Assembly (NCBI GenBank): GCA_964637365.1
Contig: CAZWWH010000001.1
Span: forward strand, 132,269-196,268
Origin: an uncultured Peptococcaceae bacterium
Lineage (GTDB): Bacteria; Bacillota; Dehalobacteriia; UBA7702
Reading direction: 5' to 3'
Length of the DNA: 64,000 bases
A program made the position numbers and the translations under genes. Below are positions 9,693 to 38,869 of this stretch, piece by piece. The notes under the pieces are model-generated. The model did no database searches and was not told where the DNA came from. It saw only the letters and a program-made list of their open reading frames with translations. Within the stretch, counting starts at the first letter, position 1. Every line of letters starts with the position of its first letter.

Positions 9693-9759
9693 AAACCCAT
9701 ATTTTTTCCACGATTCTTTTTCGCTACATATAGATATGGAATAAAGGAGTCAATAACTG

Positions 9760-17172: not shown

Positions 17173-18213
17173 TTATTCAACCGCAGATTGACTGAAGTTC
17201 AATCCAATAGAACCGCTTTCACATTCTACCTCCATTTGGTCCGCGGTATTGTTTTTGGAATGCATGGTTCCTTCAATTTTTTTACCATCAATGGAAATAT
17301 CTCCATATTCTGCTTTCAATAGATAACCGTATTCCGCTTCGGCTCCAGTAAGATTTAACGTAATATTACCGTACCCCGCATCAATTTCTGTTTTGCCCCG
17401 TAAATCACCACTGATGTCGGCATCGCCGCTTTCCAAGGAAAGATCCAGACCCTTGGAAGACACCTTCTTCATGGTCAAGCTACCATATTCCACGTCGCAT
17501 TCCAAAGTAGCCAGTTGAGCATTGTCAAAGGTCACTTCACCGCTTTCGGCGTCCAAAATCCAATGATCGGTTCCTTGACATTCCGTGATTTGTACATTGC
17601 CGTATTCTGCGGACATGGTGCTCTTACCCAAACTACATTTTTTCAACACAAGATTACTGCTTTCGGCAGCGATTTCAGCATTTTCCGCTTTCACATTTTC
17701 CAAAGTCAACGCATCACCGTATTCGTTATTCAACACCAAATGATCTGTCGCGAGATCCTTTACCAAAATCTCACCTTCTGCAATGATATTTACCGAAGAA
17801 AATTTTGCATCATTGGGAACTGTTACCGTAATTTTCGCCGAATCATCAATGCCCTCCCCAAACATCATAATGCCATGATAGGAAAATTTATAATGTAGGA
17901 ATAAAGTACCGTCCTTCACTTCATAAGAGGGCTGGCGGTCTTTCAGAAAGTTGGAGCATTGAATGGAATAGCTATCCCCTGGGATAACTTCAACGCTGCC
18001 TAGCTCTGTTGTAATATCAATTGCGGAAAACGCTTCGATCTCCGTTTTATCCATAGTTACAAGGTCTTCTGCTTTATATTCCGTGATTTTTTGGTTCTCG
18101 CTCCAATAAAGGTTCGGAAAACCTCCGGAAATAAATCCCACAGCAGCGATACCGCCGCCGACCACAACAAGTACGATACCGACAATCAAAAGAATCTTTA
18201 CCGGTTTTTTCAT
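17173..18213 (-). CDS. DUF4097-family membrane-anchored beta-helical/adhesin-like protein
   Basis: N-terminal TM anchor, then repetitive beta-strand-rich segments with recurring GD/SG/EYG patterns typical of the DUF4097 'putative adhesin' fold; third gene of the PadR-DUF1700-DUF4097 module. Confidence 0.6.
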   Translation of the reverse strand: MKKPVKILLIVGIVLVVVGGGIAAVGFISGGFPNLYWSENQKITEYKAEDLVTMDKTEIEAFSAIDITTELGSVEVIPGDSYSIQCSNFLKDRQPSYEVKDGTLFLHYKFSYHGIMMFGEGIDDSAKITVTVPNDAKFSSVNIIAEGEILVKDLATDHLVLNNEYGDALTLENVKAENAEIAAESSNLVLKKCSLGKSTMSAEYGNVQITECQGTDHWILDAESGEVTFDNAQLATLECDVEYGSLTMKKVSSKGLDLSLESGDADISGDLRGKTEIDAGYGNITLNLTGAEAEYGYLLKAEYGDISIDGKKIEGTMHSKNNTADQMEVECESGSIGLNFSQSAVE

Positions 18214-18312
18214 ATTTCTTTCCTCCTCTGTTTATGAAAGGCCACCACGCCGCAGACGATGCCGAAAACAGTGGCGAACGCCGTTAAGAAACAGCTAATA
18301 TTTTTCGTTCTC

Positions 18313-18912
18313 TTATTCAACTTCTTGACCATGCTTCCTCCGTTCAATCATAAGGCGGAATAGACGCGCCATCCCGCGGAAAGTTACTTTGGTGAGATAA
18401 TAGGAAAAGAAAAACAATAAAATCCCCGCGCCAATACAACCGATACTGCAGCCGTAATAAGCAACATAATTATAGATGGAATCTGCATGTGCAAAAAATC
18501 CCCAAAAGATACCACCGATTCCCCCGGCCGCTAACGCAATGGATGTGACCCAAAAAGATATTACCACAGAAACAACGGTGATAACCAAAGAGAAAATTAC
18601 AGCGATAATCGCAATGCCTATGGGAAGCGCGATGGGAGAAGCCAATACCGCCAAAATCACCACCCACATGGCTCGGAGTCCCTTTTTCGGTGAAACCGAA
18701 GGTTCTTCCTCCATTTCCTTAACGGCATAGTCAGCGGAAAGCTGCAAAGCGATATCCTTTACGGCCCCCAACTCCGCAATGACCTCATCCTCCCGCTCGG
18801 GCCCGGCTTCAGTCAAATATTCATCATAATATACCAGGGCATTGTCACGTTCCTCCTGAGGAATATGGGATAATTCCCGTTCCAAAGCGGATAAAAACTG
18901 TTCTTTATTCAT
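18313..18912 (-). CDS. DUF1700-family membrane protein
   Basis: N-terminal soluble helical region (MNKEQFLSALERELSHIPQEERDNALVYYDEYL…) followed by 3 TM helices; start overlaps the PadR stop (GGAGGTG RBS). Confidence 0.65.
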   Translation of the reverse strand: MNKEQFLSALERELSHIPQEERDNALVYYDEYLTEAGPEREDEVIAELGAVKDIALQLSADYAVKEMEEEPSVSPKKGLRAMWVVILAVLASPIALPIGIAIIAVIFSLVITVVSVVISFWVTSIALAAGGIGGIFWGFFAHADSIYNYVAYYGCSIGCIGAGILLFFFSYYLTKVTFRGMARLFRLMIERRKHGQEVE

Positions 18913-19225
18913 TGATTTCACCTCCAAACATAATATCTTCCACAGTGGTACGATAATTGATCCATTCCTTACGATATTCCTCCAGCTGCTCACGGCCTTC
19001 ATCGGTAATGGCGTAATAACGGCGGTTCCGTCCCTGGTAAGGTTGGTCATAAGTGGTCAGAAAGCTGTTTTTTTGTAACCGGCGCAGGACTGGATAAAGC
19101 GTGGACTCAGAAATTTCCATTTTTTCCTTCATCCTCTGGGTCAGGATATATCCGTAGGCATCCCCCTGTTCCATAATGGCCAAAACGCAGCTGTCCAATA
19201 AAGCTGCACCAAAAGGAAAGACCAT
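18905..19225 (-). CDS. PadR-family transcriptional regulator
   Basis: 106-aa winged-HTH with the PadR hallmark (GYILTQRM…STLYPVLRRLQKNSFL…RRYYAITDEGRE). Confidence 0.85.
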   Translation of the reverse strand: MVFPFGAALLDSCVLAIMEQGDAYGYILTQRMKEKMEISESTLYPVLRRLQKNSFLTTYDQPYQGRNRRYYAITDEGREQLEEYRKEWINYRTTVEDIMFGGEINE

Positions 19226-19395: not shown

Positions 19396-21374
19396 TCACC
19401 GAAGCTGATATTTTTTTATCTTTTTATATAATGTAGATTTTCCCATATTCAGCATTTTCGCCGCCTGGGCCACGTCATGATCCGTAGCCGTCAGGGCTTT
19501 TTGAATGGTTTCTATTTCCGCATCCCGGATTGGGTCTGGGGAAATTAGAGATTTAGACGGCGCGATTGACGTAGAGAATACGTCATCGGGAAAATTTCCG
19601 GGAACGATCCATTCGCCATTACCGGTAGTTACCGCATAGACAACGGCCTTTTGCAGTTGGCGCACATTACCGGGCCAATCACCATGAAGCAAAATGCTTT
19701 TCGCCTCAGAACTCAGTCGGGGTACCTGCCACTGCATTTTGCCGCAGTACTCCTGAATAAAGTGCTCTGCCAATAAAACGACGTCGTCATCGCGTTCCTT
19801 CAATGGTGGAATGACAATTTTCAATGCAGAAAGACGGTAATATAAATCTTCACGGAACAGGCGTTTCCGCACAAGCTCTTGTAAATCCTGATTGGTGGCG
19901 GCGACGAGACGGAATTCCACGTCAATGTACTTATCGCCGCCAATTCGCATCACCTGATGATTTTCTAAAACCCGTAGCAGCACCGCCTGCACCTCATAAG
20001 GCATGTCCCCAATTTCATCTAAAAACAAGGTGCCCCCTGGGCCAGCTCAATTTTTCCGGGGCGGCCCTTCCGCTCGGCACCGGTAAAGCTGCCGCCCTCA
20101 TATCCCAACAGCTCACTTTCCACCAAATTTCGAGGCATGGAGGCGCAGTTTAACGCGATAAAAGGGCCGTGGGGCCGTGAGGCGTTGTGGATCGCCTGGG
20201 CAAAAATTTCTTTGCCAGTACCGCTTTCCCCTAAAATCAATACATTTTCAAAGGAGGAGGCAAAGCGCATAGAGATATCCTTAGCTTTCACAATGGAGGA
20301 ACTTTCTCCGAGAATATCCTGGAACGTCAGAGTCGCAGTATTATGATTTCTTTGGGCAATGTAGCTGTCAATTTGTTTCGGGTCACTGATACGGATTACC
20401 ATACTGTCGGAAACATCGGCCTGCTCCCCCATAATGGGTCTTAGGCTGAACAGGTAGTTTTTATCTCCCTCCGGCAGAAGCAGTGTATCCTCTAAATTAT
20501 TAACGTTGGCTTGAAGCGACAGCATATGCTTTAACGGCGAATTCTCTCGAAGAAATTCACAAAGGTTGTACTGACGTTCCGAATCCTCCTTGATGCCAAG
20601 GATATTAATGCTTTTTCGATTAGCTTTCAAAATTTTCCCGTGATTCTCCGCCAAAACAATACCTTCATCCATAAAAGTAAGGGTGGCCTCCAGCATTTGA
20701 TTGGTCTTGCGGAGCTCCTCGTTCCGCTTTTTGATTTCCATTTGCTGACCTATGGACAAGGCCATGGAGGACGTCCAGCAAAGAGCATTGATTTGATCCC
20801 GATGATATTCCGTGGTCCAGTATTCCTCCGGCATTAATCGGGCCAAGGCAATGATCCCGACACTCTGCCCCTTTCCATCGAGAATCGGCGCTGCCGACAT
20901 TGTGGTCGGCTGCATGGTATCGTGAAAATTCTCCGGGCCGTTGGTTTGCACGGGACAGCCGTAGCGGAGAGCCAGCATGGTTGCGGTAGTTCCCAGATAC
21001 TCATCTTTCGAGGAAGATGCGATATACTCCGCACCGGAGTCCGTCACAGGGAATCCCTTATTGGCAATGATAGTGAAGTAGGATTTATCCTCCGGGCTGT
21101 TAAAGAAGCAAAGCAAATTCAAATCCCGATCAAATAAAATCACAATAAGGTGGGAAATGGCAAAAAGCTCCATAATTTCATCGGTAATCATTGCCTTTGT
21201 AGTCTCTATCAGCAATTTATTTTTTTGAAAAAGATAATTATTCTGTTCCACACTGGGATCTGGCGGAAAAAGATCCTGATATGGGTGGATGCCATAGGTA
21301 AAGGAGCGCTCCCATGACAGGGCTATTTCCTCCCGAATCAGGGGATTCCCCGAGGGACGAATTCCTTTTTCCAC
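19396..21374 (-). pseudogene. sigma-54-dependent activator (GAF-PAS-AAA+-HTH, AcoR-like) disrupted by a -1 frameshift
   Basis: ORFs 20019-21374 and 19396-20028 are the N- and C-halves of one activator; the break is at a C5/G5 homopolymer (20033-20037). Restoring one G gives …GKIELAQGGTLFLDEIGDMP…, the canonical activator sequence. Confidence 0.75.
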
Positions 21375-22139
21375 ATAATCCCTTTTCGCCCGTTCCAGTA
21401 TTGTACCGGATATGCGCCGTTCAAGGTAAAAGGCAAAGCCATCACTTGCCGAAAATATGCCGCAAGGATCAACCGCAAAGAATATGCCAATGCCAACCCC
21501 ATTATTCGCCTTTACAAAAACCGTTGCTCGGCACTACGTATGGAACGCAAACGTGGTAAGCACGACGATGTACTAATAAATGCCGCCCTTGCCGTTGCCA
21601 AAGAGCGTATGCAACGGGCAAAGAACGATCCCGATTATGCCAACGGACAGTATGAAGCAGATATACTTCGTGAAGAACTCTACGCCGAAGCGGACAGACG
21701 ATTAAACGGCAAATAACACAGATTGGAGGTGAGTGCCGTGAAAGAAAAGTATATTGACGAAAAGGAACTGAATATGTACCGCATCCAGCTGGCACCGCCG
21801 AAGTGGGATTTACAGGAATATATTGTGACCTATCTGAAAGAGCAAGATGACCGAACGAATGATGCTCGCCCAGCGGCTTGGTTTCTGTTTTGATTGCCAC
21901 AGCATATTTTATATGGATTATGACGATTTGGATGAATACGGTGATCCGAAAAAGAAACCAATCAAGCCAATGATGTATACCGATATTGCCACCGACCACG
22001 AATACAGCTCCGCCAATACCGCACACAAAAATGTGAAAAGGCACTTGCTAAACTAAAAGAAACCATAAAAGACTTGATATAACGAAAAAAGCCCCGTTAG
22101 AAATGCAGAATTTACTGCGCTCCCAACAGGGCAATTTAT

Positions 22140-24314
22140 TTATTTCCGCCTTTTGAAAACAAATGCAAAAACAAGCCCTAATGCAAGAAACAATACGCTT
22201 ACAATCATTACGATCCAATCGGTTGCAGGTACAGTATTCTGACCTTGCGATTGGGTTTGACCGTTACTGTTTGGTTGCGCATTGCCGTCAGGTCGTTGCA
22301 TCTGACCGCCGAAATCCCCATTTTCACCGTCAGGCAGTTCAGGCGGTGCGCCACCTTGCATTTGTTCGCCTCCGAAGCCGCCTTGGTTTCCGTTCGGCAT
22401 TTGACCATCAGGCATCTGAGAAATTGAACTATCTTCTGAGCTGCCATTTTCTGTAGCATCCGATTCTCCCGAAGGTGTTTTGTCGGTTGATTCTGTGGTT
22501 TCATTATCCTCAGCATCAGTCTGCGGTTTTTGAGTATTACCATCAAACTTATCTTTGCCGCCGCCCATAGTATTGCCCATAGAACCCATATCATTGATTT
22601 GAATATCACCGGCATCTATAAGGGTATCACTCTTTTGGGTATCAGAGGTAGAGCCAATTGTTCCGTCAAGTTGAGCACTCACGCTTTCTGCACGAAGCAA
22701 ACAGAACTCTTTAAGAGTCGTAATGCCTTTTTCAAATTCTTCATAAGTGCAGAACTTTGTAGGATCCTTTTCAACATATGGAGAAATCATTGCATTGACG
22801 TTATCTATCATCTCTGAGAAATAACCGCTATCGAAATAGGTCACAATAAATTCCGAGAAATACTTATGGTACAGTTCGGTATATTCTTCATTCTCGAAGA
22901 TCCAAGCAATCATCGGTCTATCTTCGGTGTTGCCGCCGGATACAGGAGAGTCAACCGGATAGTTGACAAGGTTGGTAGCACCGCCCGCAGACTCGAATCC
23001 GCCGAAAGCAAGGTTATAGTCCCACGGAACCATTTGCATCTGACCGTCTTTTTCGTAGAGATAATAGTTATGGATCATCGATCCGGTATAGCTGTCAAAA
23101 TTCAAAACAAAGTTATGCACCACGAAATAACGGATTACTTTTTCGATATCAACAGTATCTTCAAGCTCTTCGCCGTTACTCAGTTTTTTGAGAGCTGCGA
23201 TCAAACGTGCTTTATCGCTGTCGGAAACATCAGTTTTCGCATTGTCAAAGATGTTGGCATAGCTTTCGATCTCATCGTCAATGTATTTGAGCAATACATC
23301 GTCGCTGCCATTGGTCATACCGCCTTTATCTCCGCCTTGCATATCTCCACCGGGTATCTGTCCGCCCATTTCGGGAACGGTACCGCCTTGTTGCATCTGT
23401 CCGTTTGTATCTGATGTCGAACCGTCTGTAGTTGTTTCGTTATTAGGAGGTGTCATTCCGCCTTGTGCGTTACCTGCATTGGGCTCTACCGCTGTTTCTC
23501 CGCTCGGTAACTCAGGAGGTGTTGTGCCGCCCTGTGACTGACCACCTTGCATATTTTCGCCTGGCATCTGCGGAGTGGTTTGATCGGTATTACTGCTTGT
23601 TGTATCTTGCGTGGTAGTCGAGGTGTCGGCATCCTCGGTGTTGCCGAGGAAGTCATCCATATCGAACTTCTCGCCGTTGCCTCGTCCACCTCCCATACTT
23701 TGACTGTCGGGCTTATAGAGTTCACCATAATTGTTTCCGTAATTACGTTGCAGGAAAGATTTTTCTACACCTTCTACCGCAATGTAAAGCCCCCAATCTT
23801 CACCGTTTACCGTAATATAAACATAACTGCAAAGCGGTGAAGAAACGCCCATTTCAGCCATCATCTGATAGGCCAGATAATCCTTCATATAGGTGTTGTC
23901 CTGAATGATATTGTTTAGGCACAGCTTATCCAGACCGTAGTAGGTGTTGGTACTGTCGTAATGGTCAAACTCGATTTTGAAGCTGTAACGGTCGTTTCCG
24001 TAGGATGCCACCTGTGTCAGCGAAGTGTTGCCTTTTCCACGAATCGCCACATTTTTATACGCTTCATTATCAATGACAACAGAACAGGCATAGTATTCTT
24101 CGCTTTTGCAGTTTGCCGTAAATTCTTCCCAATCCTCCATAATAATATCAATGGTGTGGACAGCAGAGGTATCAAACAGCTTATTTTCATAGCCCATTAC
24201 GGTAGAAGCCTTTTGAACACCGAAACTTTCGGCATTCATAAACAATACGGTAAGAAGCAACGTAACAGCAAGAACAACACAGCAAATTTTATCAAAATGC
24301 TTATGTGTTGACAT
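22140..24314 (-). CDS. CotH kinase-family protein, membrane-anchored at both ends, with a long Gly/Gln/Met/Pro-rich low-complexity segment
   Basis: 724 aa; CotH-like core (…YGELYKPD…, …YYLYEKDGQMQMVPWDYNLAFGGF…); N-terminal signal anchor and C-terminal TM (WIVMIVSVLFLALGLVFAFVFKRRK). Confidence 0.65.
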   Translation of the reverse strand: MSTHKHFDKICCVVLAVTLLLTVLFMNAESFGVQKASTVMGYENKLFDTSAVHTIDIIMEDWEEFTANCKSEEYYACSVVIDNEAYKNVAIRGKGNTSLTQVASYGNDRYSFKIEFDHYDSTNTYYGLDKLCLNNIIQDNTYMKDYLAYQMMAEMGVSSPLCSYVYITVNGEDWGLYIAVEGVEKSFLQRNYGNNYGELYKPDSQSMGGGRGNGEKFDMDDFLGNTEDADTSTTTQDTTSSNTDQTTPQMPGENMQGGQSQGGTTPPELPSGETAVEPNAGNAQGGMTPPNNETTTDGSTSDTNGQMQQGGTVPEMGGQIPGGDMQGGDKGGMTNGSDDVLLKYIDDEIESYANIFDNAKTDVSDSDKARLIAALKKLSNGEELEDTVDIEKVIRYFVVHNFVLNFDSYTGSMIHNYYLYEKDGQMQMVPWDYNLAFGGFESAGGATNLVNYPVDSPVSGGNTEDRPMIAWIFENEEYTELYHKYFSEFIVTYFDSGYFSEMIDNVNAMISPYVEKDPTKFCTYEEFEKGITTLKEFCLLRAESVSAQLDGTIGSTSDTQKSDTLIDAGDIQINDMGSMGNTMGGGKDKFDGNTQKPQTDAEDNETTESTDKTPSGESDATENGSSEDSSISQMPDGQMPNGNQGGFGGEQMQGGAPPELPDGENGDFGGQMQRPDGNAQPNSNGQTQSQGQNTVPATDWIVMIVSVLFLALGLVFAFVFKRRK

Positions 24315-24325
24315 AGTGTACCTCC

Positions 24326-24997
24326 TTAACCCATATACTCGCCGTTATAGCTCACAAGAACTGCACTGTTTACGCCGGGCATAGTGCTCAGAGCATTGAT
24401 AAAATCGGTATTATCGTTTACCATACGAATTTCGAGATTCAGTTCAATCAATCCTTTGGTTGCCGTCTTGCTCTTAACAACGCATTTTTGAACATTACCT
24501 TTGAGAAAATCCACCGCTTTGTTTTCGGCCATAGAATCAGCGCAGGAAAGAACAACGATATAAGGATTGTAATAAGATTTCTTGTTTACGAACACAAGAA
24601 GGATTGCGCCGATGATAACGCTGCCGATTACTGCAAGAGGAATAAAACCGGCTGCAAGCACAATGCCGACTGCGATTGCCCAGAAAAGAAACGCAATATC
24701 GAGGGGTTCTTTAATAGCGGTACGGAATCGAACAATAGAAAGTGCACCAACCATACCAAGCGAAAGAACCACGTTAGAAGTTACCGCTAAAATAACAACG
24801 GTGGTGATCATCGTGAGGGCAACGAGCGTTGTTCCAAAGCTGGAGGAATACATAACGCCCTGATAGGTCTTTTTATATACGAGGAAAATAAACATACCGA
24901 TGCCGAAGGCAAGAGCCAAGGCAATCGCCATATCGAGAATACCCACGCTTGCGATATTCTCCAAAAAACTTGATTTGAAAATGTCATTGAAAGTCAT
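24326..24997 (-). CDS. DUF4956-domain membrane protein
   Basis: 223 aa, 4-5 TM helices plus a C-terminal soluble domain; fits the DUF4956 family that co-occurs with VTC-domain and CotH proteins. Confidence 0.55.
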   Translation of the reverse strand: MTFNDIFKSSFLENIASVGILDMAIALALAFGIGMFIFLVYKKTYQGVMYSSSFGTTLVALTMITTVVILAVTSNVVLSLGMVGALSIVRFRTAIKEPLDIAFLFWAIAVGIVLAAGFIPLAVIGSVIIGAILLVFVNKKSYYNPYIVVLSCADSMAENKAVDFLKGNVQKCVVKSKTATKGLIELNLEIRMVNDNTDFINALSTMPGVNSAVLVSYNGEYMG

Positions 24998-25026
24998 AAT
25001 ACTTACTCCTTATAATTTTTATTATT

Positions 25027-25698
25027 TTAGCCGTAGATTCTGCAAACGGCGTATTTGGAAAAAGCGCCAACACGGCGGTTATTAAGTTGGACAGCATCCC
25101 GAATAATGTCCGGCAAATACTCGTCCCATTTTACTTCAAGAATGATCGGTGTCTCGCCTGCAGGAACCGTAACACAGTTTGGATTCAGAAAGTCCGTACA
25201 GTTCATTCCTGTGCGGATGTTATAGTCAAGGGTTACTCGAACATTACCGGGTGCAAAAACAAAGGGTTCTCTTAGATAATCCACGATAGTTTTTGGGCGC
25301 AATCCCTGACCTTTCATCTTACTGTATAATTCCTGAATCAAAGGAACACCGCTATCCATCATCCAATTATAATCACCGTTTGCAATCGCCTGCGCTTGTT
25401 CTTTGGACAGTGTTGCATTGTCTTTCAAACACAAACCATTGACTTTGCTTTTCTTCTCTAAATGAATCAAGGATGTGTCGTTGTTATAATATCGAATGCG
25501 GAACTTTTCACGGACATTCACACTGTCAACCTTTTCTCTTAGTGCCTTATCGGATGCGTTATCAAAATATAAACTGCGGATCAGATACTTGCCGTCAATA
25601 GCGTGGGCATCTCGTTTCATAACGGCAGACAAACGCTGACGGAGAACAAGCATATCACCGTAGCTGATTTCGTGCTTCCATTCGTGTCGGTATTTCAT
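25027..25698 (-). CDS. VTC-domain (polyphosphate-polymerase/triphosphate-tunnel-like) protein
   Basis: 223 aa; N-terminus MKYRHEWKHEISYGD…RQRL…IRSLYFDN… and conserved Lys/Arg/Glu pattern of bacterial VTC (CYTH-like) domains. Confidence 0.6.
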   Translation of the reverse strand: MKYRHEWKHEISYGDMLVLRQRLSAVMKRDAHAIDGKYLIRSLYFDNASDKALREKVDSVNVREKFRIRYYNNDTSLIHLEKKSKVNGLCLKDNATLSKEQAQAIANGDYNWMMDSGVPLIQELYSKMKGQGLRPKTIVDYLREPFVFAPGNVRVTLDYNIRTGMNCTDFLNPNCVTVPAGETPIILEVKWDEYLPDIIRDAVQLNNRRVGAFSKYAVCRIYG

Positions 25699-25798
25699 CT
25701 TTTCACTCCTTTCTCATTTAGCTTCATAAAAAAGCCTCCTGTACTTGATAGCATCATTGTACAGGAGGAAGATTGAAGTTTGATTGAAGATTATTAAA

Positions 25799-27058
25799 TT
25801 ATTTTCCTAATGGAATATGCACAGTAAATTCAACCTTACCGTCATAACACAATACATCAATTTTACCACTATGTGTGGAAACGATTGCTTTCGCTATTGC
25901 AAGTCCGAGTCCATAGTGCTTGTCCTCACTATTACGGGCGGTATTCACTCGATAGAAGCGTTCAAATATCTGTTCACGCTGTTCTGCAGGGATTTCATTA
26001 CCTTTGTTTATAACGGAAAGCTTGGCGAGAGCGTGTTCCTTTGTCAAAGACAAATAGACTTCGCCTTGTTCTTTGCTATGACGAATAGCGTTATCAAGCA
26101 GTATTGAAACGATTTGTTTAAGCTGTGTGCTGTTACCTTCGATACTAATACCGTTTGCTATATTGCTGTTCAGCACGAGTCCTTTTTCAAAGGCAACACT
26201 TTCAAATGGGAGGGCTTCACCGGCAACCAAACGGCTGAAATCAATGTGTTCCATCTGCGGTGTTACGGTCTCGGTTCGAGCAAGGTCAAGAAGCTGACCG
26301 ACCAACATTCCCATACGCTCATTTTCATATTGTATATTTTGGAGCCATTGGTTATCGCCGATCTCACGGGACAAGAGTTCTGCATTTGCACTTACCACCG
26401 ATACCGGTGTTTTCAGTTCGTGACCTGCATCGGATATAAACTGCTTCTGTTTTTGATAGCTTTCTTCAAGGGGATTCACAATTTTTCTTGCAAGAAATAC
26501 CGACAGGAAAAAGAACAAAACCAAAGCCACACCGCCAAAAACCAGCGTATAACGGAATAAGGTCAAGGCGTTTTCGTTTACAACAGTATTATCCATAAAG
26601 GTAACAAGGTTGTAGCCACCTTTATCCGCTTTGTAAAAAGCAAGATTATTTTTAGTTCCGGTAGTTTCATTGCTCTTTATAATATCTTTTGCCAACACTT
26701 CCAAATCATCATTGGTATGCACTGTTGGCGGTTCATTCTTTACTTCAATAATATCACCGTCATAGGATACCGCAACGGTATAGAAAGTGGACAACTGAAA
26801 CAACGGTGATTGCGGATCAAAGCCGAGATTGAAACCTTGATTGCCATTAGTTTTTGGTCTGTTTGGCGGAATCATATCTTCAAAGGATTGCGGGAGCACA
26901 TACATTTCAGCGTGTGCCTGAAGCATCTGTTCATTTTGTTTTGCCATTTCAAAATAACTGGATGCATAAATAACACCAAGCGTTCCTACCCATAAAAGCA
27001 CAAGGATGGACATAATGGCTGCAACGATTTTTCTTTTTGATTTTTTAAACATCGTCAC
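25799..27058 (-). CDS. sensor histidine kinase (two TM, HAMP, HisKA, HATPase)
   Basis: H-box ISDAGHELKTPVSV, N/G boxes (IRHS…, GLGLAIAKAIV); overlaps the response-regulator gene by 14 nt. Confidence 0.85.
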   Translation of the reverse strand: MTMFKKSKRKIVAAIMSILVLLWVGTLGVIYASSYFEMAKQNEQMLQAHAEMYVLPQSFEDMIPPNRPKTNGNQGFNLGFDPQSPLFQLSTFYTVAVSYDGDIIEVKNEPPTVHTNDDLEVLAKDIIKSNETTGTKNNLAFYKADKGGYNLVTFMDNTVVNENALTLFRYTLVFGGVALVLFFFLSVFLARKIVNPLEESYQKQKQFISDAGHELKTPVSVVSANAELLSREIGDNQWLQNIQYENERMGMLVGQLLDLARTETVTPQMEHIDFSRLVAGEALPFESVAFEKGLVLNSNIANGISIEGNSTQLKQIVSILLDNAIRHSKEQGEVYLSLTKEHALAKLSVINKGNEIPAEQREQIFERFYRVNTARNSEDKHYGLGLAIAKAIVSTHSGKIDVLCYDGKVEFTVHIPLGK

Positions 27059-27728
27059 ACCTCAATTCATATCCAACACCACGGACTGCCTTAATTTCGG
27101 TTTTAGCTTCGATAAAACTGAGTTTTTTACGGGTAAAAGACATATATACTTCTACATTGTTATACTCGGCTTCACTCTCAAAACCCCAAATTTTTACCGC
27201 AAGTTGTTTACGGGTGAGTATCTGACCGCTATTTGCAATTAAGTATTCAAGGATTCTATATTCCTTTTCACTAAGTCTTACGCTCTGTCCGTTGGTAGTG
27301 CAAGATAATGTAAGGGTGCTTGTATCAAGGGTAATGTCCCCAAATGAAAGAATACCATCTGTTGTTCCAAGTGTTCGTCTACCGAGTGCACGGAGACGGG
27401 CAAGCAGTTCCTTTGTCATAAAGGGTTTTGTTAGATAATCGTCGGCACCGCTATCAAGACCTGTAACCTTGTCGTCAAGCTCTGCCTTTGCCGTGAGCAT
27501 CAATATCGGTGTTGCAACACCTTTGTTGCGAGCCCGTTTTACAATTTCGTATCCGTTCATTCCGGGGAGCATAACATCAAGAATTACAATATCGTAAATG
27601 TTACTCTCGATTGCGGCTAATCCATCAAGACCGTTTGCAAAATGATCTACTTCATATTTTTCAAGACGCAGGATTTCGCAAAGCGCCTGCGCCATTCTTT
27701 TTTCATCTTCGACGAGTAAAATCCTCAT
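27045..27728 (-). CDS. OmpR-family response regulator
   Basis: MRILLVEDE…D(53)VMLPGMNG receiver domain plus a winged-helix trans_reg_C (…VRGVGY); GGAGGT RBS before MRIL. Confidence 0.85.
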   Translation of the reverse strand: MRILLVEDEKRMAQALCEILRLEKYEVDHFANGLDGLAAIESNIYDIVILDVMLPGMNGYEIVKRARNKGVATPILMLTAKAELDDKVTGLDSGADDYLTKPFMTKELLARLRALGRRTLGTTDGILSFGDITLDTSTLTLSCTTNGQSVRLSEKEYRILEYLIANSGQILTRKQLAVKIWGFESEAEYNNVEVYMSFTRKKLSFIEAKTEIKAVRGVGYELRCDDV

Positions 27729-27805
27729 AGCGATACCTCCGCTTATTATCATTATACCATAAAAGATTGAAAAATGATTGAAGTATTTGAAAAACGGCGG
27801 CTCGG

Positions 27806-28189
27806 TTAGTTGTAAATTATATCGTAATTTACGATTTCTGTGGCTCTGCTGCGGATGTTATTCATCCGAGAAACCCATTCCATTTGACTGTCAGCTTTGA
27901 GTTGTTCGGTCACGCCCTCACGCTCTGCCATCTGTTCTACGAGCCGAAAAAACATATCCTCAGTCTGCTTGTTTACATCGGCAAGGTGCCTGTTCAGTTC
28001 ACATTGTGTGAGTAAGGTTGTATAAAACCCTTTGCGGTGCACCTTGATATACTGCAAGTGCCGCTGTCCCCAAATACCGATAGGCTGTTTTTCTTCATTG
28101 GGGAGTGCAAGGTCGGGCAAGTAGTAATCTCCGTGCAGAGTGTAGCTAATGCTCGTCTGTTCGTTATAAATGTGCTTCTCCATCATCAC
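27806..28189 (-). CDS. TnpV-like small protein (transposon-associated, Tn4451-family accessory protein)
   Basis: 127 aa; the …ISYTLHGDYYLPDL…PIGIWGQRHL…QMEWV… pattern resembles, from memory, TnpV proteins carried on Firmicute conjugative/mobilisable elements; not verified by search. Confidence 0.45.
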   Translation of the reverse strand: MMMEKHIYNEQTSISYTLHGDYYLPDLALPNEEKQPIGIWGQRHLQYIKVHRKGFYTTLLTQCELNRHLADVNKQTEDMFFRLVEQMAEREGVTEQLKADSQMEWVSRMNNIRSRATEIVNYDIIYN

Positions 28190-28371
28190 GCCTCCTTGTA
28201 GATCACTTTGAATTTCTTTTGCTTTCTATCAATGATTTTCAGTAAAACCTCATCCACCGCATCGGTGTACTTGCCGTTGGCAATAAGCTTATTCCGCATT
28301 TCATTCAGGCATTTTATAACTACCCGCCGTTCAAAATCATCAAGTGCTATGTAATATTTCTTATCCCGCAT
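28186..28371 (-). CDS. hypothetical 61-aa basic protein
   Basis: AAGGAG RBS 9 nt before its ATG; translationally coupled (ATGA overlap) to the TnpV-like gene. Confidence 0.45.
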   Translation of the reverse strand: MRDKKYYIALDDFERRVVIKCLNEMRNKLIANGKYTDAVDEVLLKIIDRKQKKFKVIYKEA

Positions 28372-28376
28372 ATCAT

Positions 28377-28676
28377 TTACTCCTTTAACAAATCTTGAAA
28401 CGGTGTGTCGGTGACTACGAAGGTATCGTATGTGAAGTTGGCTCCCAAGCGAAACCACATCATATAACTGTCAAGATTGGATTCGCCGTTTACCACGCTC
28501 CACGCATTAACGAAATCGAGAAACTTTTTCTTATTTTCAACCGATAGCCGTTCTGTTAGGAAATCTTCATTGAGCATCAAGACCTTCATTTGCTTTTGCA
28601 CCGCTTTGTTCTGCTTTGTGCTTCGTTCCTGTGGATCAATGTTGCCGTAATAAAATTCTTCTATAAATTTACCCAT
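28377..28676 (-). CDS. hypothetical 99-aa protein (first gene of the same-strand array)
   Basis: ORF with Firmicute codon usage; no recognisable motif. Confidence 0.45.
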   Translation of the reverse strand: MGKFIEEFYYGNIDPQERSTKQNKAVQKQMKVLMLNEDFLTERLSVENKKKFLDFVNAWSVVNGESNLDSYMMWFRLGANFTYDTFVVTDTPFQDLLKE

Positions 28677-28757
28677 ATTGTTACCTCCTTTGATTTTCTA
28701 TCATCATTTTACTCAAAGGCAGTTTGATAGTCGAATGTATGGATATAAAAGCATAAA

Positions 28758-28798
28758 AAGACAGAGAGAAAGGCGATTAAGCCTTTCTCTCTGTCTTT
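28758..28798 (-). terminator. strong hairpin/terminator separating spoIIID from the downstream array
   Basis: 18-bp near-perfect stem AAAGACAGAGAGAAAGGC/GCCTTTCTCTCTGTCTTT, U-run on the minus strand. Confidence 0.6.
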
Positions 28799-28954
28799 CC
28801 CTTTTGCAACGCCCATAAGTTAGTGTTTTGAAATTACTGCCTTATGTGGCGTGTGCAAATGTGCTTTCTCTTTTTTGTTTATCCACGTCACACGACATAA
28901 AACAATCCCATAGGGGCAATTCTTGCACCGTCGATTCATTGGGACACAAAGAGA

Positions 28955-28982
28955 GCCACCACATTTCAAAATGTGGCGGCTT
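28955..28982 (-). terminator. hairpin immediately after the spoIIID stop
   Basis: GCCACCACAT-ttcaaa-ATGTGGCGGC (one mismatch). Confidence 0.45.
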
Positions 28983-28990
28983 CATTGAAA

Positions 28991-29272
28991 CTATGGCTTT
29001 CGTTGAATCTTTACCTTGGCCTGATGCTCTGCAGCATATTTTTTTCGCGTGGCTTCGCCGCCTCGAAGGTGACGTTCGGCCTTGTTGATTTCTAATATCT
29101 GGCGCACTTTTTGTGCCGTTGCTTCATTAATCATCGGCAATCGCTCCGTCATATCCTTATGTACCGTTGACTTACTCACACCAAAAATGGCAGCGGTCTG
29201 ACGTACTGTGGCCGAGGATTCCATGATATAGCTGCTGATCTCCAGGACCCGTTTTTCAATATAATCCTGCAT
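28991..29272 (-). CDS. spoIIID: stage III sporulation transcriptional regulator SpoIIID
   Basis: 93 aa; …FGVSKSTVHKDMTERLP…RHLRGGEAT… is near-identical in the HTH core to Bacillus SpoIIID. Confidence 0.9.
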   Translation of the reverse strand: MQDYIEKRVLEISSYIMESSATVRQTAAIFGVSKSTVHKDMTERLPMINEATAQKVRQILEINKAERHLRGGEATRKKYAAEHQAKVKIQRKP

Positions 29273-29500
29273 GGAAAGGCCTCCCGAAAAAGCTCCTTTT
29301 TAACTATATGGCTTCGCCGCCGCTTTATGCAGGGGAGTCCAAACAGGAAAGAATTTTCGAAAGAATCACCATATAAAACATAGGCCTGTTAAGAGAAGTT
29401 CCAAATAGAGCAACCCTCTCCGCACCGCATGTAATAGGGAGAAATTTTGCCTGAAATAAACCTTTCTTAACAGCCTCAAGCTATCTAAATCGTCATCGTA

Positions 29501-32664: not shown

Positions 32665-33495
32665 TTACTCCACTTTCGCCAAGTCATTACGGACATAGCC
32701 ACTTTCACCATCGTCCAAAACAATGTGATACCAGCCATCGACTTCTTCCAGGTAAATGCCGGAATCTCCCCGATCCAATCGAGTAACCTCATCGGAGTCT
32801 ACAGTGGCTTCGGAACGGATTCTGGCAAAGCTGTTGGTAATCACTACTTTTCGTGTGGGAGCTGAAGATGGATTGGTTCCATTCGCCTCAGAAACCAAAT
32901 CAGAGGAAACATAACCTTTCGTATCATCTGCCATACGTACATGAATCCAACCGTTGCTTTCCCCCAACTGCTCCATGGTATCGCCCTCTAAGGCGAAAGC
33001 CACTATCTCACTATCTTGGGAAGCTTGGGCGCGAACATTCACATAAAGTCCAACGGGGGAAACCAAAGTTGTTTTTTCTTTTTCTTCGGAATCTTTTTGG
33101 GAAGTTTCTTTTTCCTCTGAAGTGTCTTTATCAGAAGATTTTCCACTGTCCTCTGTGACCAATGACATCTTCACCGAAGGCACATAGCCGGAAACACCAT
33201 CCATAACTTCAACATATAGCCAATTAGGCTCATCCTGATGAATGCATGATACCTCTGTATTTTTGGGAAGGCTCATCAGAACTTCTGAGTCCATATCGGC
33301 ACTGGCATGAACATTAACAATATTGTCTCCCGTAGTGACAATTTTTCCGGAAAGGTCCTTAGTGGCTTCATCCCCGAAACCCAACATGGCAGGGAGTCCG
33401 GCAATTCCACCATTCTGATTAATATGTCCCAACAGAAATCCACCAGCCAAACTCGCCACAGAAATGATAAAGACAGTTACTACTTTTTTCCACAC
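32665..33495 (-). CDS. membrane-anchored protein with three bacterial SH3 (SH3_3) domains
   Basis: N-terminal TM, then three repeats of the N..V.VR…..S.V…L..G…..E..GW..V….G..GYV pattern separated by an acidic/Ser-rich linker. Confidence 0.65.
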   Translation of the reverse strand: MWKKVVTVFIISVASLAGGFLLGHINQNGGIAGLPAMLGFGDEATKDLSGKIVTTGDNIVNVHASADMDSEVLMSLPKNTEVSCIHQDEPNWLYVEVMDGVSGYVPSVKMSLVTEDSGKSSDKDTSEEKETSQKDSEEKEKTTLVSPVGLYVNVRAQASQDSEIVAFALEGDTMEQLGESNGWIHVRMADDTKGYVSSDLVSEANGTNPSSAPTRKVVITNSFARIRSEATVDSDEVTRLDRGDSGIYLEEVDGWYHIVLDDGESGYVRNDLAKVE

Positions 33496-33537: not shown

Positions 33538-34557
33538 CTATTTTTCTTTATGGACACTCAACACACCGATTTTTACAGCGCCAGCCATAATCAAAGCCGA
33601 GGCAAAGACCAACAGCAAAATGCTGTAAACCGAGGGCAACAGTGTTACCATTACGGCAAAAGCCCCCAGCAGGAAGGTAATGCCGTAGATAAACAAAACT
33701 GTATCCTTATGGCTGAATCCACGGGCCATCAACTGATGATGCAGGTGCCCCTTGTCCGCTTCAAAAATAGGCTTATGATTCATTTTTCTGCGGATGATGG
33801 CAAAAAGCGTATCAAGAATAGGGATCCCCAACACCATGATAGGGATAAAGAAGGAAATAATGGTAGCCCCTTCCGATAATCCCAAGAGGGACAGCGCTCC
33901 CACCACGAAACCAAGGAACAAGGCGCCGCAATCCCCCATAAAAAGCTGGGCAGGATGAAAATTATAGCGCAGGAAGCCCAATATACATCCCACCAGGATA
34001 ATAGCAATACTGCCACTGACGGTAAAACCTTTCGCCAAAGCCACCACAGCCAGAGACAGTGCGGCAATTCCCGAAACCCCGGAGGCCAAACCATCAAGAC
34101 CATCAATGAGATTCACAGCATTGGAAACCCCCACGAGCCATAGAAGCGTAATAGGATAACCCAGCCAACCCATATCGAAAATAACGCCATTAATTGGATT
34201 GGTAATAAATTCTAAACGGACGCCAAACCCCATCAGCACCAATGCCGCAATGATTTGACCCAATAATTTCATTTTGGGAGATATATTTTTAATATCATCG
34301 TAAAGCCCTACGGCAACGACAATCGACGCACTGAGAGCCAAACCCACAATCGTATGGGAAAACTCGCCATAAACCAGAATCCCCGCAATAAAACCGCAGT
34401 AAATGCCAAGGCCACCCAAGCGAGTCATAATACCGGTATGAACTTTACGGGCATCGGGTTCGTCATATACACCAAAATGCATGGCCATTTTTTTTGTCAA
34501 TGGCGTTACCAACAATGATATAACGACTCCGGCCAGGAAAGCAATCAATAATCTCAT
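33538..34557 (-). CDS. tagO: UDP-GlcNAc:undecaprenyl-phosphate GlcNAc-1-phosphate transferase (TagO/WecA, MraY-like GT4 family)
   Basis: polytopic; DD..N (YDDIKN), NAVNLIDGLDGLA and HHQLM motifs of the MraY/WecA family; TGAGGT RBS before MRLL. Confidence 0.8.
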   Translation of the reverse strand: MRLLIAFLAGVVISLLVTPLTKKMAMHFGVYDEPDARKVHTGIMTRLGGLGIYCGFIAGILVYGEFSHTIVGLALSASIVVAVGLYDDIKNISPKMKLLGQIIAALVLMGFGVRLEFITNPINGVIFDMGWLGYPITLLWLVGVSNAVNLIDGLDGLASGVSGIAALSLAVVALAKGFTVSGSIAIILVGCILGFLRYNFHPAQLFMGDCGALFLGFVVGALSLLGLSEGATIISFFIPIMVLGIPILDTLFAIIRRKMNHKPIFEADKGHLHHQLMARGFSHKDTVLFIYGITFLLGAFAVMVTLLPSVYSILLLVFASALIMAGAVKIGVLSVHKEK

Positions 34558-34606
34558 AATAACCTCAATTTGCCAAAACAGAATCACAACTTATTTGCAA
34601 ATTATT

Positions 34607-36142
34607 TTAAGAAGATGCACGTTTTAATTTATGGAGCAAAATCTCTTTCGTATCATTAAATTCCCGCACTTTAAGGATTGCCGCAAAGAGCAAGTAGACA
34701 GTAACGCCCATGATAATACAGCAAAGCACAAGCAGGAACACACTGTTAATGCTGAATACCCCCAGGCACCACTCAGTAAGTTTTACGGCGGCTGCCATCA
34801 ATAATGAGGAAAAGAAGATTTTCCCAAAGGACTGTACCAAGGGGCCGTAATGAAAATGGGGCATATGCTTTTTTAATGCAATAAAGAATACAAGCATATT
34901 TGCAGTTCCGGCCAAAGACGTGGCTAAGGCCAAGCCACCGACACCCATCCATTTCATGGTGAGGAAGCTAATCGCCAGGTTCACAAGAATCCCCGCACCA
35001 CCAGCATAAAGCGGCAGTTTATTATCCTCAAAAGCATAAAAGACTTTTACCATCACCAGTACAACAGCAAAAGGCAGCAGGCCGATAGCATACCACAACA
35101 AGGCAGATGAGGTCATCGCAGTAGCCGTAGCATCAAAGGCACCTCGTTGAAACAACAACGTAATAATGGGTTGGCGTAAAACCATTAAACCAACCGCCGA
35201 AGGAATTCCTAAGAACATGACCAGACCAACGCCTTTATGGATGACGCGATCCAGTCGTTCTTCTTCCCCCTTCATGGCGTATTCCGTCAGATAAGGATAA
35301 ATAGCCACCGCCATGGCAGCTACAAAAATGCCGCCGGGCAGGTTCACGACTTTGCTGGCATAGTTCAGGGCTGAAATACTGCCCTCTGCCAAGCCGGAAG
35401 CAAAAATTCGATTGATAATATAATAAATTTGATTGACCGACGTTCCCAGCACAATAGGAACCAAAGAAACCATCGCCGCCCGAACATCAGGATGATGCCA
35501 TGATAATTTCGCCTGGTAACGAAAGCCTGTTTGGGCCACACTGGGGAGGTGAATCAACATAAAGCCGACAAATCCCAATAAGGTACCAATGGCCAAGCCT
35601 TGAATCCGTGAAACCAAGCACACAGAAATGATAATAATTGCACTGCATAGCGCAGGAGCCGAAGCACTTACCAGAAAACGGTGATTGGCGTTGAGATATC
35701 CTGACAGGACCATGCCGATGCTCATAAACAGAATAGCAGGGAACATGATGCGGGTCAGCTGTACTGCCAAGGCCGCAGTTTCCCCATCAAATAACGGTGC
35801 TGTGATTTTCACCAAAATTGGCGCAAAGGCAATGCCAAGGATCGTGACGATTAGCATGACCAAGGCAACCAGGTTCAAAAAGTAATTTCCTACCAAAAAG
35901 GCTTCTTTTTTATTTTCTTCCAACAAATATTTGGTTAGCAATGGTACTGTTACTGTTACCAAGGCCGAACCCAATACTGCCTGTAAAGAATAGGGTAACG
36001 TATAGGCGACGAGATACGCGTCGGTATACATTGTTGCGCCAAAAGCGCCGGCAATGGCCATCTCCCGGACAAAGCCCAGAAGTTTTGCCACAAAATTCAT
36101 CACAACGATGACTGCCGCCGCCTTTGTAATATTGTTTGCCAT
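34607..36142 (-). CDS. murJ: lipid II / polysaccharide flippase MurJ (MOP superfamily)
   Basis: 511 aa, 14 TM; N-terminal …KLLGFVREMAIAGAFGATMYTDAYLVAYTLP… typical of MurJ/MviN. Confidence 0.8.
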   Translation of the reverse strand: MANNITKAAAVIVVMNFVAKLLGFVREMAIAGAFGATMYTDAYLVAYTLPYSLQAVLGSALVTVTVPLLTKYLLEENKKEAFLVGNYFLNLVALVMLIVTILGIAFAPILVKITAPLFDGETAALAVQLTRIMFPAILFMSIGMVLSGYLNANHRFLVSASAPALCSAIIIISVCLVSRIQGLAIGTLLGFVGFMLIHLPSVAQTGFRYQAKLSWHHPDVRAAMVSLVPIVLGTSVNQIYYIINRIFASGLAEGSISALNYASKVVNLPGGIFVAAMAVAIYPYLTEYAMKGEEERLDRVIHKGVGLVMFLGIPSAVGLMVLRQPIITLLFQRGAFDATATAMTSSALLWYAIGLLPFAVVLVMVKVFYAFEDNKLPLYAGGAGILVNLAISFLTMKWMGVGGLALATSLAGTANMLVFFIALKKHMPHFHYGPLVQSFGKIFFSSLLMAAAVKLTEWCLGVFSINSVFLLVLCCIIMGVTVYLLFAAILKVREFNDTKEILLHKLKRASS

Positions 36143-36156
36143 GGTTCTCCTTTTAA

Positions 36157-37932: not shown

Positions 37933-38100
37933 GGTTTCATCCCTTCCCAACCCGATCCTTGGTCATAGAACCTTTCTAATATTCATCGGATCTGTGGTTT
38001 TATACATATAAAACTAACCTATATTATAATAAAAAAAAGACAATTCATCAAGTTTTTTCACAATAAAAGTGGAAAAGCGACACAGAAAGATGCCGCAAAC

Positions 38101-38135
38101 CAAAAAGAGCAGGGGAGGTTTGCCCCCATGCTCTT
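38101..38135 (-). terminator. rho-independent terminator after tagA
   Basis: AGAGCAtGGGGG…CCCCTGCTCT hairpin followed by TTTTT on the minus strand. Confidence 0.6.
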
Positions 38136-38142
38136 TATATAA

Positions 38143-38868
38143 TCATTTACAATCCTTCTTGACTAAGGACATAAACTTGGGTAACGCCATGGTGCGTTTC
38201 AAACGCTTTGGATCGGCGCAAAGGCGGTAAAACCATTCCAGACCGGTTTTCTGAAAAAACCTCGGCGCTCGTTTCACATTACCGGAAAGCACATCCAAGC
38301 TGCCGCCAACGCCAATTGCTACATGAATATTTGCAGCGTCATGGTACTGCGTAATCCATTGATCCTGACGGGGGAATCCCATGGCCACGAAGAGGATATC
38401 TGTTTGAGCCGCAGCAATTTCCCGAGCGATGGCGGGACTTTCTTCCTCCTTAAAGTAACCGTCACGATAACCGACAATTTCCGCTTGAGGATAATCCCGG
38501 CGAATATTGGCCACAGCAGCCTCCACCACTTCAGGATGGGCTCCCAAGAAATAAAAACGATGTTTTCCTTGGGACAACAAATTTTGTACCAGGTCAATGC
38601 CGGAGACGCGCTCTCTCAGGGGTGTACCATACCGTTCCGCCGCCCAGAGAATCCCCGAGCCATCGGCAGTAATATAATCCGCAGTCTCTACAATAGAGCG
38701 AATTTCACTGTTAGTAGCTGCAGCATAGGCAATTTCCGCATTCATGGTCACGATGCGGGAAAAGCCTCCTTCATCTACCACACGATCAATATAGGCCAAG
38801 GTTTCTTCCATAGATGCATCCACCACAGGAAGTCCCAGGACATGAATTTCTTTTCCTTTTGTCGCCAT
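38143..38868 (-). CDS. tagA: WecB/TagA/CpsF-family glycosyltransferase (UDP-ManNAc transferase, TagA-like)
   Basis: 241 aa; …ITADGSGI…FFLGA…FVAMGFPRQ(D/E)…WFYRL… family signature. Confidence 0.8.
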   Translation of the reverse strand: MATKGKEIHVLGLPVVDASMEETLAYIDRVVDEGGFSRIVTMNAEIAYAAATNSEIRSIVETADYITADGSGILWAAERYGTPLRERVSGIDLVQNLLSQGKHRFYFLGAHPEVVEAAVANIRRDYPQAEIVGYRDGYFKEEESPAIAREIAAAQTDILFVAMGFPRQDQWITQYHDAANIHVAIGVGGSLDVLSGNVKRAPRFFQKTGLEWFYRLCADPKRLKRTMALPKFMSLVKKDCK

Positions 38869-38869
38869 T

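Follow-up and report, generated by a model that had tools for sequence, protein, structure and literature searches.

Genes for a CotH-family kinase, a polyphosphate-polymerase-like protein with a VTC domain and a membrane protein of the DUF4956 family are known as accessory genes of Gram-positive pel loci, where streptococci, clostridia and bifidobacteria have the triad contiguous with pelDEADAFG (Whitfield et al. 2020, PMC7112168). In S. intermedius these genes are SIR_1592-1594, and deletion of the DUF4956 or the CotH gene lowers Pel and aggregation (PMC12345266); the same report (mBio) states that no synteny of the triad was found outside pel loci. Here, we describe a five-gene module at 22140-27752 of a 64-kb stretch of DNA from an uncultured Peptococcaceae bacterium (the whole stretch is referred to as 'the window'), in which the same triad is joined to genes for a response regulator and a histidine kinase. 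The window and dozens of related loci place the triad outside pel, contradicting the synteny statement. Judged by its sequence, the module appears to be a stand-alone, sensor-controlled, mobile form of a gene set that had already been noted.

The module and the pel accessory triad share their three gene families, contiguous with one another, and a CotH protein predicted to be secreted. In the pel setting, two of the genes affect Pel-dependent aggregation, and DUF4956 is described there as an MgtC-like transmembrane region with an ACT domain. In contrast, the module has neither a pel operon nor a DUF4832 gene at its locus; regulator, kinase, promoter boxes and terminators are all its own, and the unit that travels is 5.6 kb long. 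Members of the Pel and DUF4832 families were absent from the 45 open reading frames (ORFs) of the window that were scanned, which include all of those within 20 kb of the module; the scan left out seven ORFs of 150 amino acids or more at the window edges. The initial annotation, made from the sequence alone, presented the locus as a candidate for an undescribed system. The triad itself was already known beside pel, but we found no paper that assigns it a biochemical function, or that describes a sensor-controlled, pel-free form or the Cthe_2159 alternative discussed below.

The five ORFs all lie on the minus strand of 22140-27752, in the order regulator, histidine kinase, VTC, DUF4956 and CotH. 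HMMER searches place every one of them above its Pfam cut-off, and both the co-directional arrangement and the five family assignments first given to these genes are upheld. When the longest ORFs are used, the intergenic gaps are -14, 100, 29 and 11 nt. The likely starts are ATG 27728 for the regulator (227 amino acids, with GGAGG before it) and ATG 27052 for the kinase (417 amino acids), the same starts that were called independently on identical metagenome contigs. Because of these starts, the regulator and kinase genes overlap by 8 nt, and not by 14 nt as originally stated. ATG 27752, with which the longest regulator ORF begins, falls within a -10 box.

Comparison with other genomes defines the ends of the module. 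The DNA that is conserved between unrelated flanks spans 22136-27797 (minus strand). In blastn alignments of the window with seven related loci from other genomes (L007, L012, L013, L014, L019, L022 and L027), similarity sets in at 27760-27797 and ends at 22136-22140, where the locus reaches that far. The conserved span runs from the promoter of the regulator gene to the stop codon of the CotH gene, and the edges match a promoter at one end and a terminator at the other. The latter, an intrinsic terminator 3' of CotH (22085-22132, minus strand), comprises a 13-bp outer stem and a 4-bp inner stem followed by U6; its RNA folds at -28.2 kcal/mol (z -6.3), and none of 200 shuffled sequences folds equally well. 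An Rfam scan of 21000-29500 returned no RNA element. In L004-L011, the same five-gene set lies between LysR and GH43/Rnf genes, with a VTC protein 87% identical to that of the window. In the window itself, TnpV/DUF6809 flank the set at one end, and small ORFs with a split sigma-54 activator at the other. The five-gene block behaves as a single unit of 5.6 kb, mobile between unrelated flanks.

The VTC–DUF4956 core and its surface partners

Recurrence of this gene linkage in Clostridia and other anaerobes had been proposed, and gene neighbourhoods bear it out far beyond chance. Among 80 loci from genomes of Oscillospiraceae, Lachnospiraceae and related bacteria, VTC is followed by DUF4956 in 75, and the whole five-gene order is found again in other genomic contexts. 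The pairing extends to distant examples in every case with sufficient contig, several distant VTC representatives being on contigs too short to display their neighbours; one distant arrangement runs CotH, then a long VTC, then DUF4956. The slot after DUF4956 is occupied by CotH in 46 of the 80 loci and, in 24-25, by a carbohydrate-binding β-helix protein of the Cthe_2159 family (e.g. L017:11390-13105, L030:4222-6135 and L088:11426-13102, with ~20 other loci). The ectodomains of CotH and Cthe_2159 are unrelated, yet the proteins begin with a common 34-amino acid leader, MSTHK-x2-D-x-IC...T-x-LFMNGE-x-LG (51% mean identity between the families), and usually have a C-terminal anchor and low-complexity stalks in common, too. 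Signal peptides are seldom this similar, and a docking role for the leader is therefore suggested. A sensor pair adjoins 26 of 38 CotH-type loci versus none of 19 Cthe_2159-type loci (p = 3e-7), and the genes upstream of the latter include no conserved neighbour. These comparisons point to VTC and DUF4956 as the conserved core, and to CotH as one of two interchangeable surface partners.

Elsewhere, the triad occurs within or beside polysaccharide loci, in keeping with an envelope theme. It is found within a glycan cluster on the Pseudobutyrivibrio plasmid pNP95, and on a Planococcus plasmid (L100:4470-12824) it forms an operon with genes for a hypothetical protein of ~690 amino acids, a HEAT-repeat protein and a glycosyltransferase of ~470 amino acids. 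The operon order in C. perfringens NELoc-2 matches that of the Planococcus plasmid; there, the VTC–DUF4956 pair is duplicated around a resolvase, and DUF4956 is annotated as 'tubulin/FtsZ' (PMC2879425). In B. thetaiotaomicron, a DUF4956 gene stands beside DUF2490 (BT3498-BT3499) and both are repressed under iron limitation (PMC10434189); this could be a version of the pair found in Gram-negative bacteria, with another partner.

Such settings invite the explanation that the module is an accessory to a polymer, either exopolysaccharide or wall, whose genes lie in another part of the genome; CotH would phosphorylate the glycan or its synthase with ordinary ATP, and VTC and DUF4956 would be regulatory. 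The contiguity with pelDEADAFG, the glycosyltransferase operons of Planococcus and NELoc-2, and the glycan cluster of pNP95 all agree with this, as do the lowered Pel of the knock-outs (PMC12345266), the affinity of the alternative third protein for carbohydrate, and the presence of a wall-polymer cluster 9 kb off in the window. That cluster is separated from the module by metabolic genes, spoIIID and mobile-element genes, however; the scan of 45 window ORFs brought to light no pel genes, and the five-gene unit moves between unrelated flanks without a glycosyltransferase. The explanation also leaves the supply of ATP outside the membrane unaccounted for, and we consider it unlikely.

The VTC protein (223 amino acids; 25027-25698, minus strand) is soluble, and matches Pfam VTC (PF09359) with an E value of 3.2e-37, at 128.8 bits against a cut-off of 23 and over profile positions 2-229 of 235. 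Its AlphaFold model has a predicted local distance difference test score (pLDDT) of 94.9. When this model is compared with the PDB by Foldseek, yeast VTC chains take ranks 1-13 (best, Vtc4 3g3r, E 2.5e-13, TM-score 0.71), ahead of ygiF, the first non-VTC family (E 1.5e-8), and of the CYTH enzymes. The triphosphate-tunnel or polyphosphate-polymerase-like fold that had been ascribed to this protein is borne out, with Vtc4 as its closest structure. As a single sequence, the window protein finds only a marginal Vtc2 match in the PDB (E 0.9). A profile of 52 diverse homologues finds yeast Vtc4 with an E value of 1.5e-10, and equates K8 with K200, R67/R69 with R264/R266, K83 with K281 and R143 with R361. 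The pairing of E188 with E426 comes from a separate, sub-threshold HMMER domain, with which hhalign agrees; hhalign, in addition, sets Y141/R143 on Y359/R361 and FSKY (213-216) on FSKF (456-459) of Vtc4. A 48-column C-terminal profile aimed at the SK motif gave only noise against Vtc4, and hhalign was used instead. Invariant or near-invariant in the 52 homologues are R4, E6, K8, R67, R69, Y71, E81, K83, K92, Y141, R143, R154, D158, E188, K190, S214 and K215.

According to a cryo-EM study, the triphosphate- and Mn-binding set of Vtc4 consists of K200, R264, R266, K281, R361, K458, S457, Y359 and E426, and mutagenesis in yeast found the eight of these that bind triphosphate to be needed for polyphosphate synthesis; K458 is the sole residue of the set that is replaced in the inactive Vtc2/3 (bioRxiv 10.1101/2023.01.27.525886). 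All nine equivalents are present in the window protein (K8, R67, R69, K83, Y141, R143, E188, S214 and K215), where K215 is the counterpart of K458, and each is invariant or at least 90% conserved in the 52 homologues. By sequence and model, the window protein is a Vtc4-like catalytic domain, without the SPX and transmembrane parts, and a candidate polyphosphate polymerase.

The likeness to the yeast VTC complex thus lies in the Pfam domain, the closed β-barrel tunnel fold nearest to Vtc4, the triphosphate/Mn residues including the K458 equivalent, and the obligatory pairing of the enzyme with a membrane protein. The differences are several. The window enzyme is a separate protein of 223 amino acids with no SPX, no transmembrane segment and no Vtc1 partner. 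Its partner, DUF4956, has about five transmembrane helices and an ACT-like domain, in place of the three-helix VTC transmembrane domain. Control of the module is transcriptional, through a two-component system, whereas that of yeast is by inositol pyrophosphates, and the target compartment would be the cell exterior. Polyphosphate in bacteria is usually attributed to PPK1 and PPK2, and VTC-type polymerases are treated as eukaryotic; a 2023 review counted VTC across eukaryotes only. Yet the family comprises ~4,300 bacterial clusters at 50% identity, and every member examined retains the catalytic residues of Vtc4; a VTC-domain protein is encoded in 599 or more species-level genomes. Longer members carry N-terminal extensions without a Pfam match. 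One apparent VTC–DUF4956 fusion, P0203, was rejected: its VTC domain is truncated, and it may be an assembly artefact.

The DUF4956 protein (223 amino acids; 24326-24997, minus strand) exceeds the gathering score of PF16316 (E 8.3e-10; 39.1 bits against 30.6). As foreseen for a polytopic membrane protein, its model has about five transmembrane helices (20-45, 51-71, 75-91, 98-115 and 119-138), and these are followed by a C-terminal β-α-β-β-α-β domain. The pLDDT is 70-82 in the C-terminal domain and ~55 in the transmembrane part. The best Foldseek match, and the only one with an E value of 0.001 or less, is the C-terminal domain of M. tuberculosis MgtC (2LQJ, E 3e-4). NCBIfam gives a weak match to MgtC/SapB (E 7e-5; PRK09977, 22.5 bits against a cut-off of 214), the JGI label for homologues is YhiD-like, and neither the single sequence nor a profile matches anything in the PDB. 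The protein may be described as MgtC-like or MgtC-related, below the threshold for membership of MgtC/SapB, the likeness of fold being in the C-terminal domain. With the MgtC/SapB/YhiD proteins, it shares a polytopic N-terminal part and a cytoplasmic ACT-like C-terminal domain; unlike them, it has the invariant motif SIVRFRTAIKEP and an obligatory VTC partner, both of which are specific to DUF4956. The protein is conserved to an extreme degree: where overall identity has dropped to 38%, the motif LSLGMVGALSIVRFRTAIKEP is still near-invariant. In it, R90, R92 and K96 are invariant, and G81, I95 and E97 differ in one distant sequence. The positive-inside rule would place both the basic motif and the ACT-like domain in the cytoplasm. 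In the literature searched, expression studies that mention DUF4956 do so only where genes with differential expression are tabulated.

ATP synthase and PhoR are the targets of MgtC according to the summary in PMC12345266, and the resemblance of DUF4956 to MgtC lends itself to an explanation by cytoplasmic phosphate or energy homeostasis. VTC would make or degrade polyphosphate or triphosphate inside the cell, DUF4956 would be an MgtC-like regulator of ATP synthase or of phosphate uptake, and CotH would be a separate, co-regulated surface protein, either an ATP-using ecto-kinase or an adhesin. The existence of VTC–DUF4956 pairs without any surface partner fits this picture. What it leaves unexplained is the common leader of two unrelated surface proteins after DUF4956, and the repeated embedding of these genes in polysaccharide loci; we regard it as rather unlikely.

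The CotH protein (724 amino acids; 22140-24314, minus strand) matches Pfam CotH (PF08757) with an E value of 2.4e-65 (221.6 bits) in two stretches. Its domain is split by a G/T/Q/D/P-rich, low-complexity insert of 137 amino acids (205-345) that varies from 22 to 219 amino acids in relatives. In the PDB it matches B. cereus CotH (5JD9), and its NFD (D407) and PWD (D432) align with the NFD and PWD motifs of the B. cereus protein, 23 residues apart. The catalytic aspartates of B. subtilis CotH are D228 and D251 (PMC7821199), and their equivalents, D407 and D432, are present in the window protein. Across 50 CotH sequences, comprising that of the window, 46 encoded at related loci and three distant ones, conservation of N405-x-D407 and W431-D432-Y433 is 97% or higher. 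Assignment to the CotH kinase family is confirmed, and, with both catalytic aspartates kept, the protein appears to be catalytically intact. It begins with the leader (amino acids 1-34, MSTHK..ICC..LFMNAE, hydrophobic at 10-28) and ends with a low-complexity stalk (560-700) and a transmembrane segment (701-719) followed by KRRK. Given the leader and the C-terminal segment, the CotH domain should be outside the membrane. The membrane tether proposed at the outset is present, but the N-terminal leader means that it is not the whole story, and the topology supports the proposed action at the envelope. Insert and stalk, both disordered, could serve as substrates for auto-phosphorylation, as glycosylation sites or as spacers that span the wall.

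Membership of the CotH family raises the question of whether the module is a spore-coat kinase locus in the style of Bacillus, acting on coat proteins in sporulation. The genome is that of a spore-former, and SpoIIID is encoded 700 nt from the neighbours of the module. The window protein resembles Bacillus spore-coat CotH (5JD9) in its atypical protein-kinase fold family and in its catalytic pair of aspartates. It differs in being twice as long and in having a leader, a membrane anchor, an insert in the kinase domain and no sporulation control; the Bacillus proteins, which are cytoplasmic in the mother cell and have 359-362 amino acids, align nearly end to end and have no leader or anchor segments. 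The leader and anchor of the window protein would put its CotH domain outside the cytoplasm, the promoter is predicted to be regulator-dependent and of the sigma-70 type, the triad occurs in non-sporulating streptococci and bifidobacteria, and no cotB- or cotG-like gene is adjacent. A role in the spore coat is, in our estimation, highly improbable. Anti-phage defence was considered, too, and rejected: PADLOC has no match for VTC, DUF4956 or CotH, and finds only generic receiver and ATPase matches for the regulator and kinase.

Predicted control by the sensor pair

The response regulator (227 amino acids; 27045-27728, minus strand; longest ORF to 27752) matches Pfam Response_reg (E 1.7e-29) and Trans_reg_C (E 2.2e-20), and the sensor histidine kinase (417 amino acids; 25799-27052, minus strand) matches HisKA (E 3.9e-13) and HATPase_c (E 1.3e-21). 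A receiver and winged-helix regulator, together with a HisKA/HATPase_c kinase encoded by an overlapping gene, identify the pair as an OmpR/PhoB-type two-component system. The kinase has transmembrane segments at amino acids 11-29 and 172-190 (numbered on the ORF of 419 amino acids) around an outside loop of ~140 amino acids, and matches neither HAMP nor PAS. The loop evolves faster than the kinase core, close orthologues having 57% identity in the former and 75% in the latter. No NCBIfam equivalog cut-off is reached by either protein, the best scores being 225.2 bits against 250 for the regulator (RppA) and 161 against 400 for the kinase (RppB). The two appear to be orthologues of no named pair (RppAB, PhoBR/PnpRS, CopRS and others).

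Two promoters of similar construction are predicted. That of the regulator and kinase genes (27751-27782, minus strand) has TTCAAT-N5-TTCAAT (27766-27782), 9 nt, and then TATAAT (27751-27756); that of the VTC, DUF4956 and CotH genes (25756-25788, minus strand) has TTCAAT-N5-TTCAAT (25772-25788), 10 nt, and TACAAT (25756-25761). The exact sequence TTCAAT-N5-TTCAAT has only these two matches in the 64 kb, both on the minus strand, against 0.07 expected. The direct repeats, 11 bp apart, stand in place of a -35 element and are likely to be binding sites for the regulator at both promoters. Scored as TTCAnn-N5-TTCAnn, 8-12 nt and TAnnnT, no more than 220 nt upstream of VTC, the box precedes VTC at 28 of the 36 loci where a sensor pair is adjacent, versus 7 of the 51 where none is (Fisher p = 1.7e-9); its background rate is 0.5% of random 226-nt windows. 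Of 35 related loci, 15 have the same geometry before the regulator gene. In a second clade, the sensor pair is divergently transcribed, and the intergenic region that the two directions share has TTCAGC half-sites for each of them. A different gene order goes with a different box sequence while the geometry is kept, as expected of a true regulator and its operator.

At both promoters, two hexamer repeats with a period of 11 bp stand 9-10 nt before a good -10 box, an arrangement that resembles class II activation of the PhoP/PhoB type. The system differs from that type in the large outside loop of its kinase, the lack of a PAS domain, and the fact that neither protein is orthologous to a named pair. 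The half-sites TTCACA/TTCAAT recall the PhoP box of B. subtilis (consensus TT(A/T/C)ACA-N5), a point in favour of phosphate homeostasis; against it, the regulator and kinase fall below the PhoB/PhoR cut-offs, as they do all other equivalog cut-offs.

The stretch that separates the kinase gene from VTC contains a hairpin, CCUCCUGUAC...GUACAGGAGG, with U6 after it (25728-25768, minus strand); its left arm overlaps the -10 box of the VTC promoter. The RNA of 25699-25810 folds at -26 kcal/mol (z -2.9), and the hairpin is kept in L007, L012, L013, L014 and L022. It is probably the terminator of the regulator-kinase transcript; as such, it probably blocks read-through, so that the three effector genes depend on activated regulator. 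The analysis shows, in silico, an autoregulated sensor pair that drives the VTC–DUF4956–CotH operon. The earlier suggestion that the effectors are under their own sensor kinase is supported by the predicted regulator boxes, which are conserved at both promoters, and the regulon appears to be the adjacent operon.

A possible route for polyphosphate export

The reading that we favour, tentatively, is of a signal-induced envelope system in which polyphosphate is made at the membrane, exported, and used by a docked surface protein. We judge this chain of events a serious possibility, if short of probable. The soluble VTC protein would be an enzyme of the Vtc4 type, building polyphosphate from the γ-phosphate of ATP. 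It would dock on the cytoplasmic face of DUF4956, at the invariant basic motif that carries R90, R92 and K96, and DUF4956 would move the chain, or phosphoryl groups, across the membrane, in parallel to the coupling of synthesis and transit in yeast VTC. The third protein would be kept beside the pair by its N-terminal leader and C-terminal anchor, with its catalytic domain outside. With the exported phosphate donor, CotH might then phosphorylate a polymer at the surface, for which the candidates are a wall polymer or exopolysaccharide, a surface protein, or its own Ser/Thr/Asp-rich stalks, and the outcome would be an altered surface charge or matrix attachment. Export is favoured because it accounts for the obligatory pairing of VTC with DUF4956, the common leader and the swapping of partners, as well as for the link with cationic Pel and surface polymers, and because it gives an extracellular kinase a phosphate donor. 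That VTC and DUF4956 constitute the first bacterial polyphosphate synthase-translocase of the VTC type, threading polyphosphate to a docked ecto-enzyme (CotH or the Cthe_2159 β-helix), is a more specific proposal, and we think it doubtful.

Several points weigh against export. We know of no kinase with the protein-kinase fold that uses polyphosphate. The tunnel residues of VTC are partly common to triphosphatases and cyclases, and the bacterial protein retains a Glu (E6) of the classic ExExK motif that is absent from Vtc4. The alignment to S457/K458 used a Vtc4 C-terminal sequence that was partly entered by hand, although it agrees with the residue numbers in print. Between DUF4956 and the channel of yeast VTC there is no relationship, and, since the transmembrane model of DUF4956 has a pLDDT of only ~55, a channel in this protein is conjecture. 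VTC–DUF4956 pairs occur without a partner, and export to a partner cannot, therefore, be the sole role of the pair. The VTC gene, SIR_1593, does not figure among the S. intermedius mutants with lowered Pel or aggregation listed in the available part of PMC12345266, and in the literature we found no measured activity for any bacterial VTC-domain, DUF4956 or secreted CotH protein.

CotH proteins that bear export signals are widespread, occurring in gut anaerobes, streptococci, Mucorales and the pathogenicity loci of C. perfringens. Should the export model be true, polyphosphate, surface charge, the biofilm matrix (cationic Pel) and the sensing of signals would be linked in abundant gut Clostridia. 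A synthase-translocase of the VTC type would, in addition, answer how a kinase works outside the bacterial cell, where ATP is scarce, and would give bacteria a third way to make polyphosphate, next to PPK1 and PPK2 and under the control of its own sensor. The module is compact, a 5.6-kb unit with defined predicted promoters, regulator boxes and terminators, and could be transferred to a tractable host.

Surroundings in the window

Directly upstream of the module, at 27806-28676, are TnpV, an ORF of 61 amino acids and DUF6809, and directly downstream, at 21540-22056, are three small plus-strand ORFs; both flanks look like remnants of mobile elements. A comparison of the TnpV/DUF6809 flank with a plasmid collection gave only a 58-nt match. 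Beyond the small ORFs, at 19396-21374, a sigma-54 activator is split by a frameshift into overlapping ORFs (20019-21374 and 19396-20028). The identical split is present in the independent metagenome contig L001, and is therefore probably no sequencing error.

The wall-glycopolymer cluster occupies 33538-45659 (minus strand), and encodes a WecA/TagO-like GT4 enzyme, two MurJ-like flippases, two pyruvyl transferases (one of them fused to GT4/GT1), TagA/WecG and an LCP ligase; a triple-SH3 protein adjoins it at 32665-33495. The cluster appears to make a secondary cell-wall polymer that is pyruvylated, a possible substrate of the module. At 17173-19225 are genes for a PadR regulator, a membrane protein with a HAAS domain and a 'toastrack' protein of the DUF4097 family, a recurrent trio that is predicted to sense stress. 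Three methyltransferases of the MttB family, a BCCT transporter and two PAS/sigma-54 activators are encoded at 3151-11466 and 63114-63884, and these loci probably serve the demethylation of quaternary amines.

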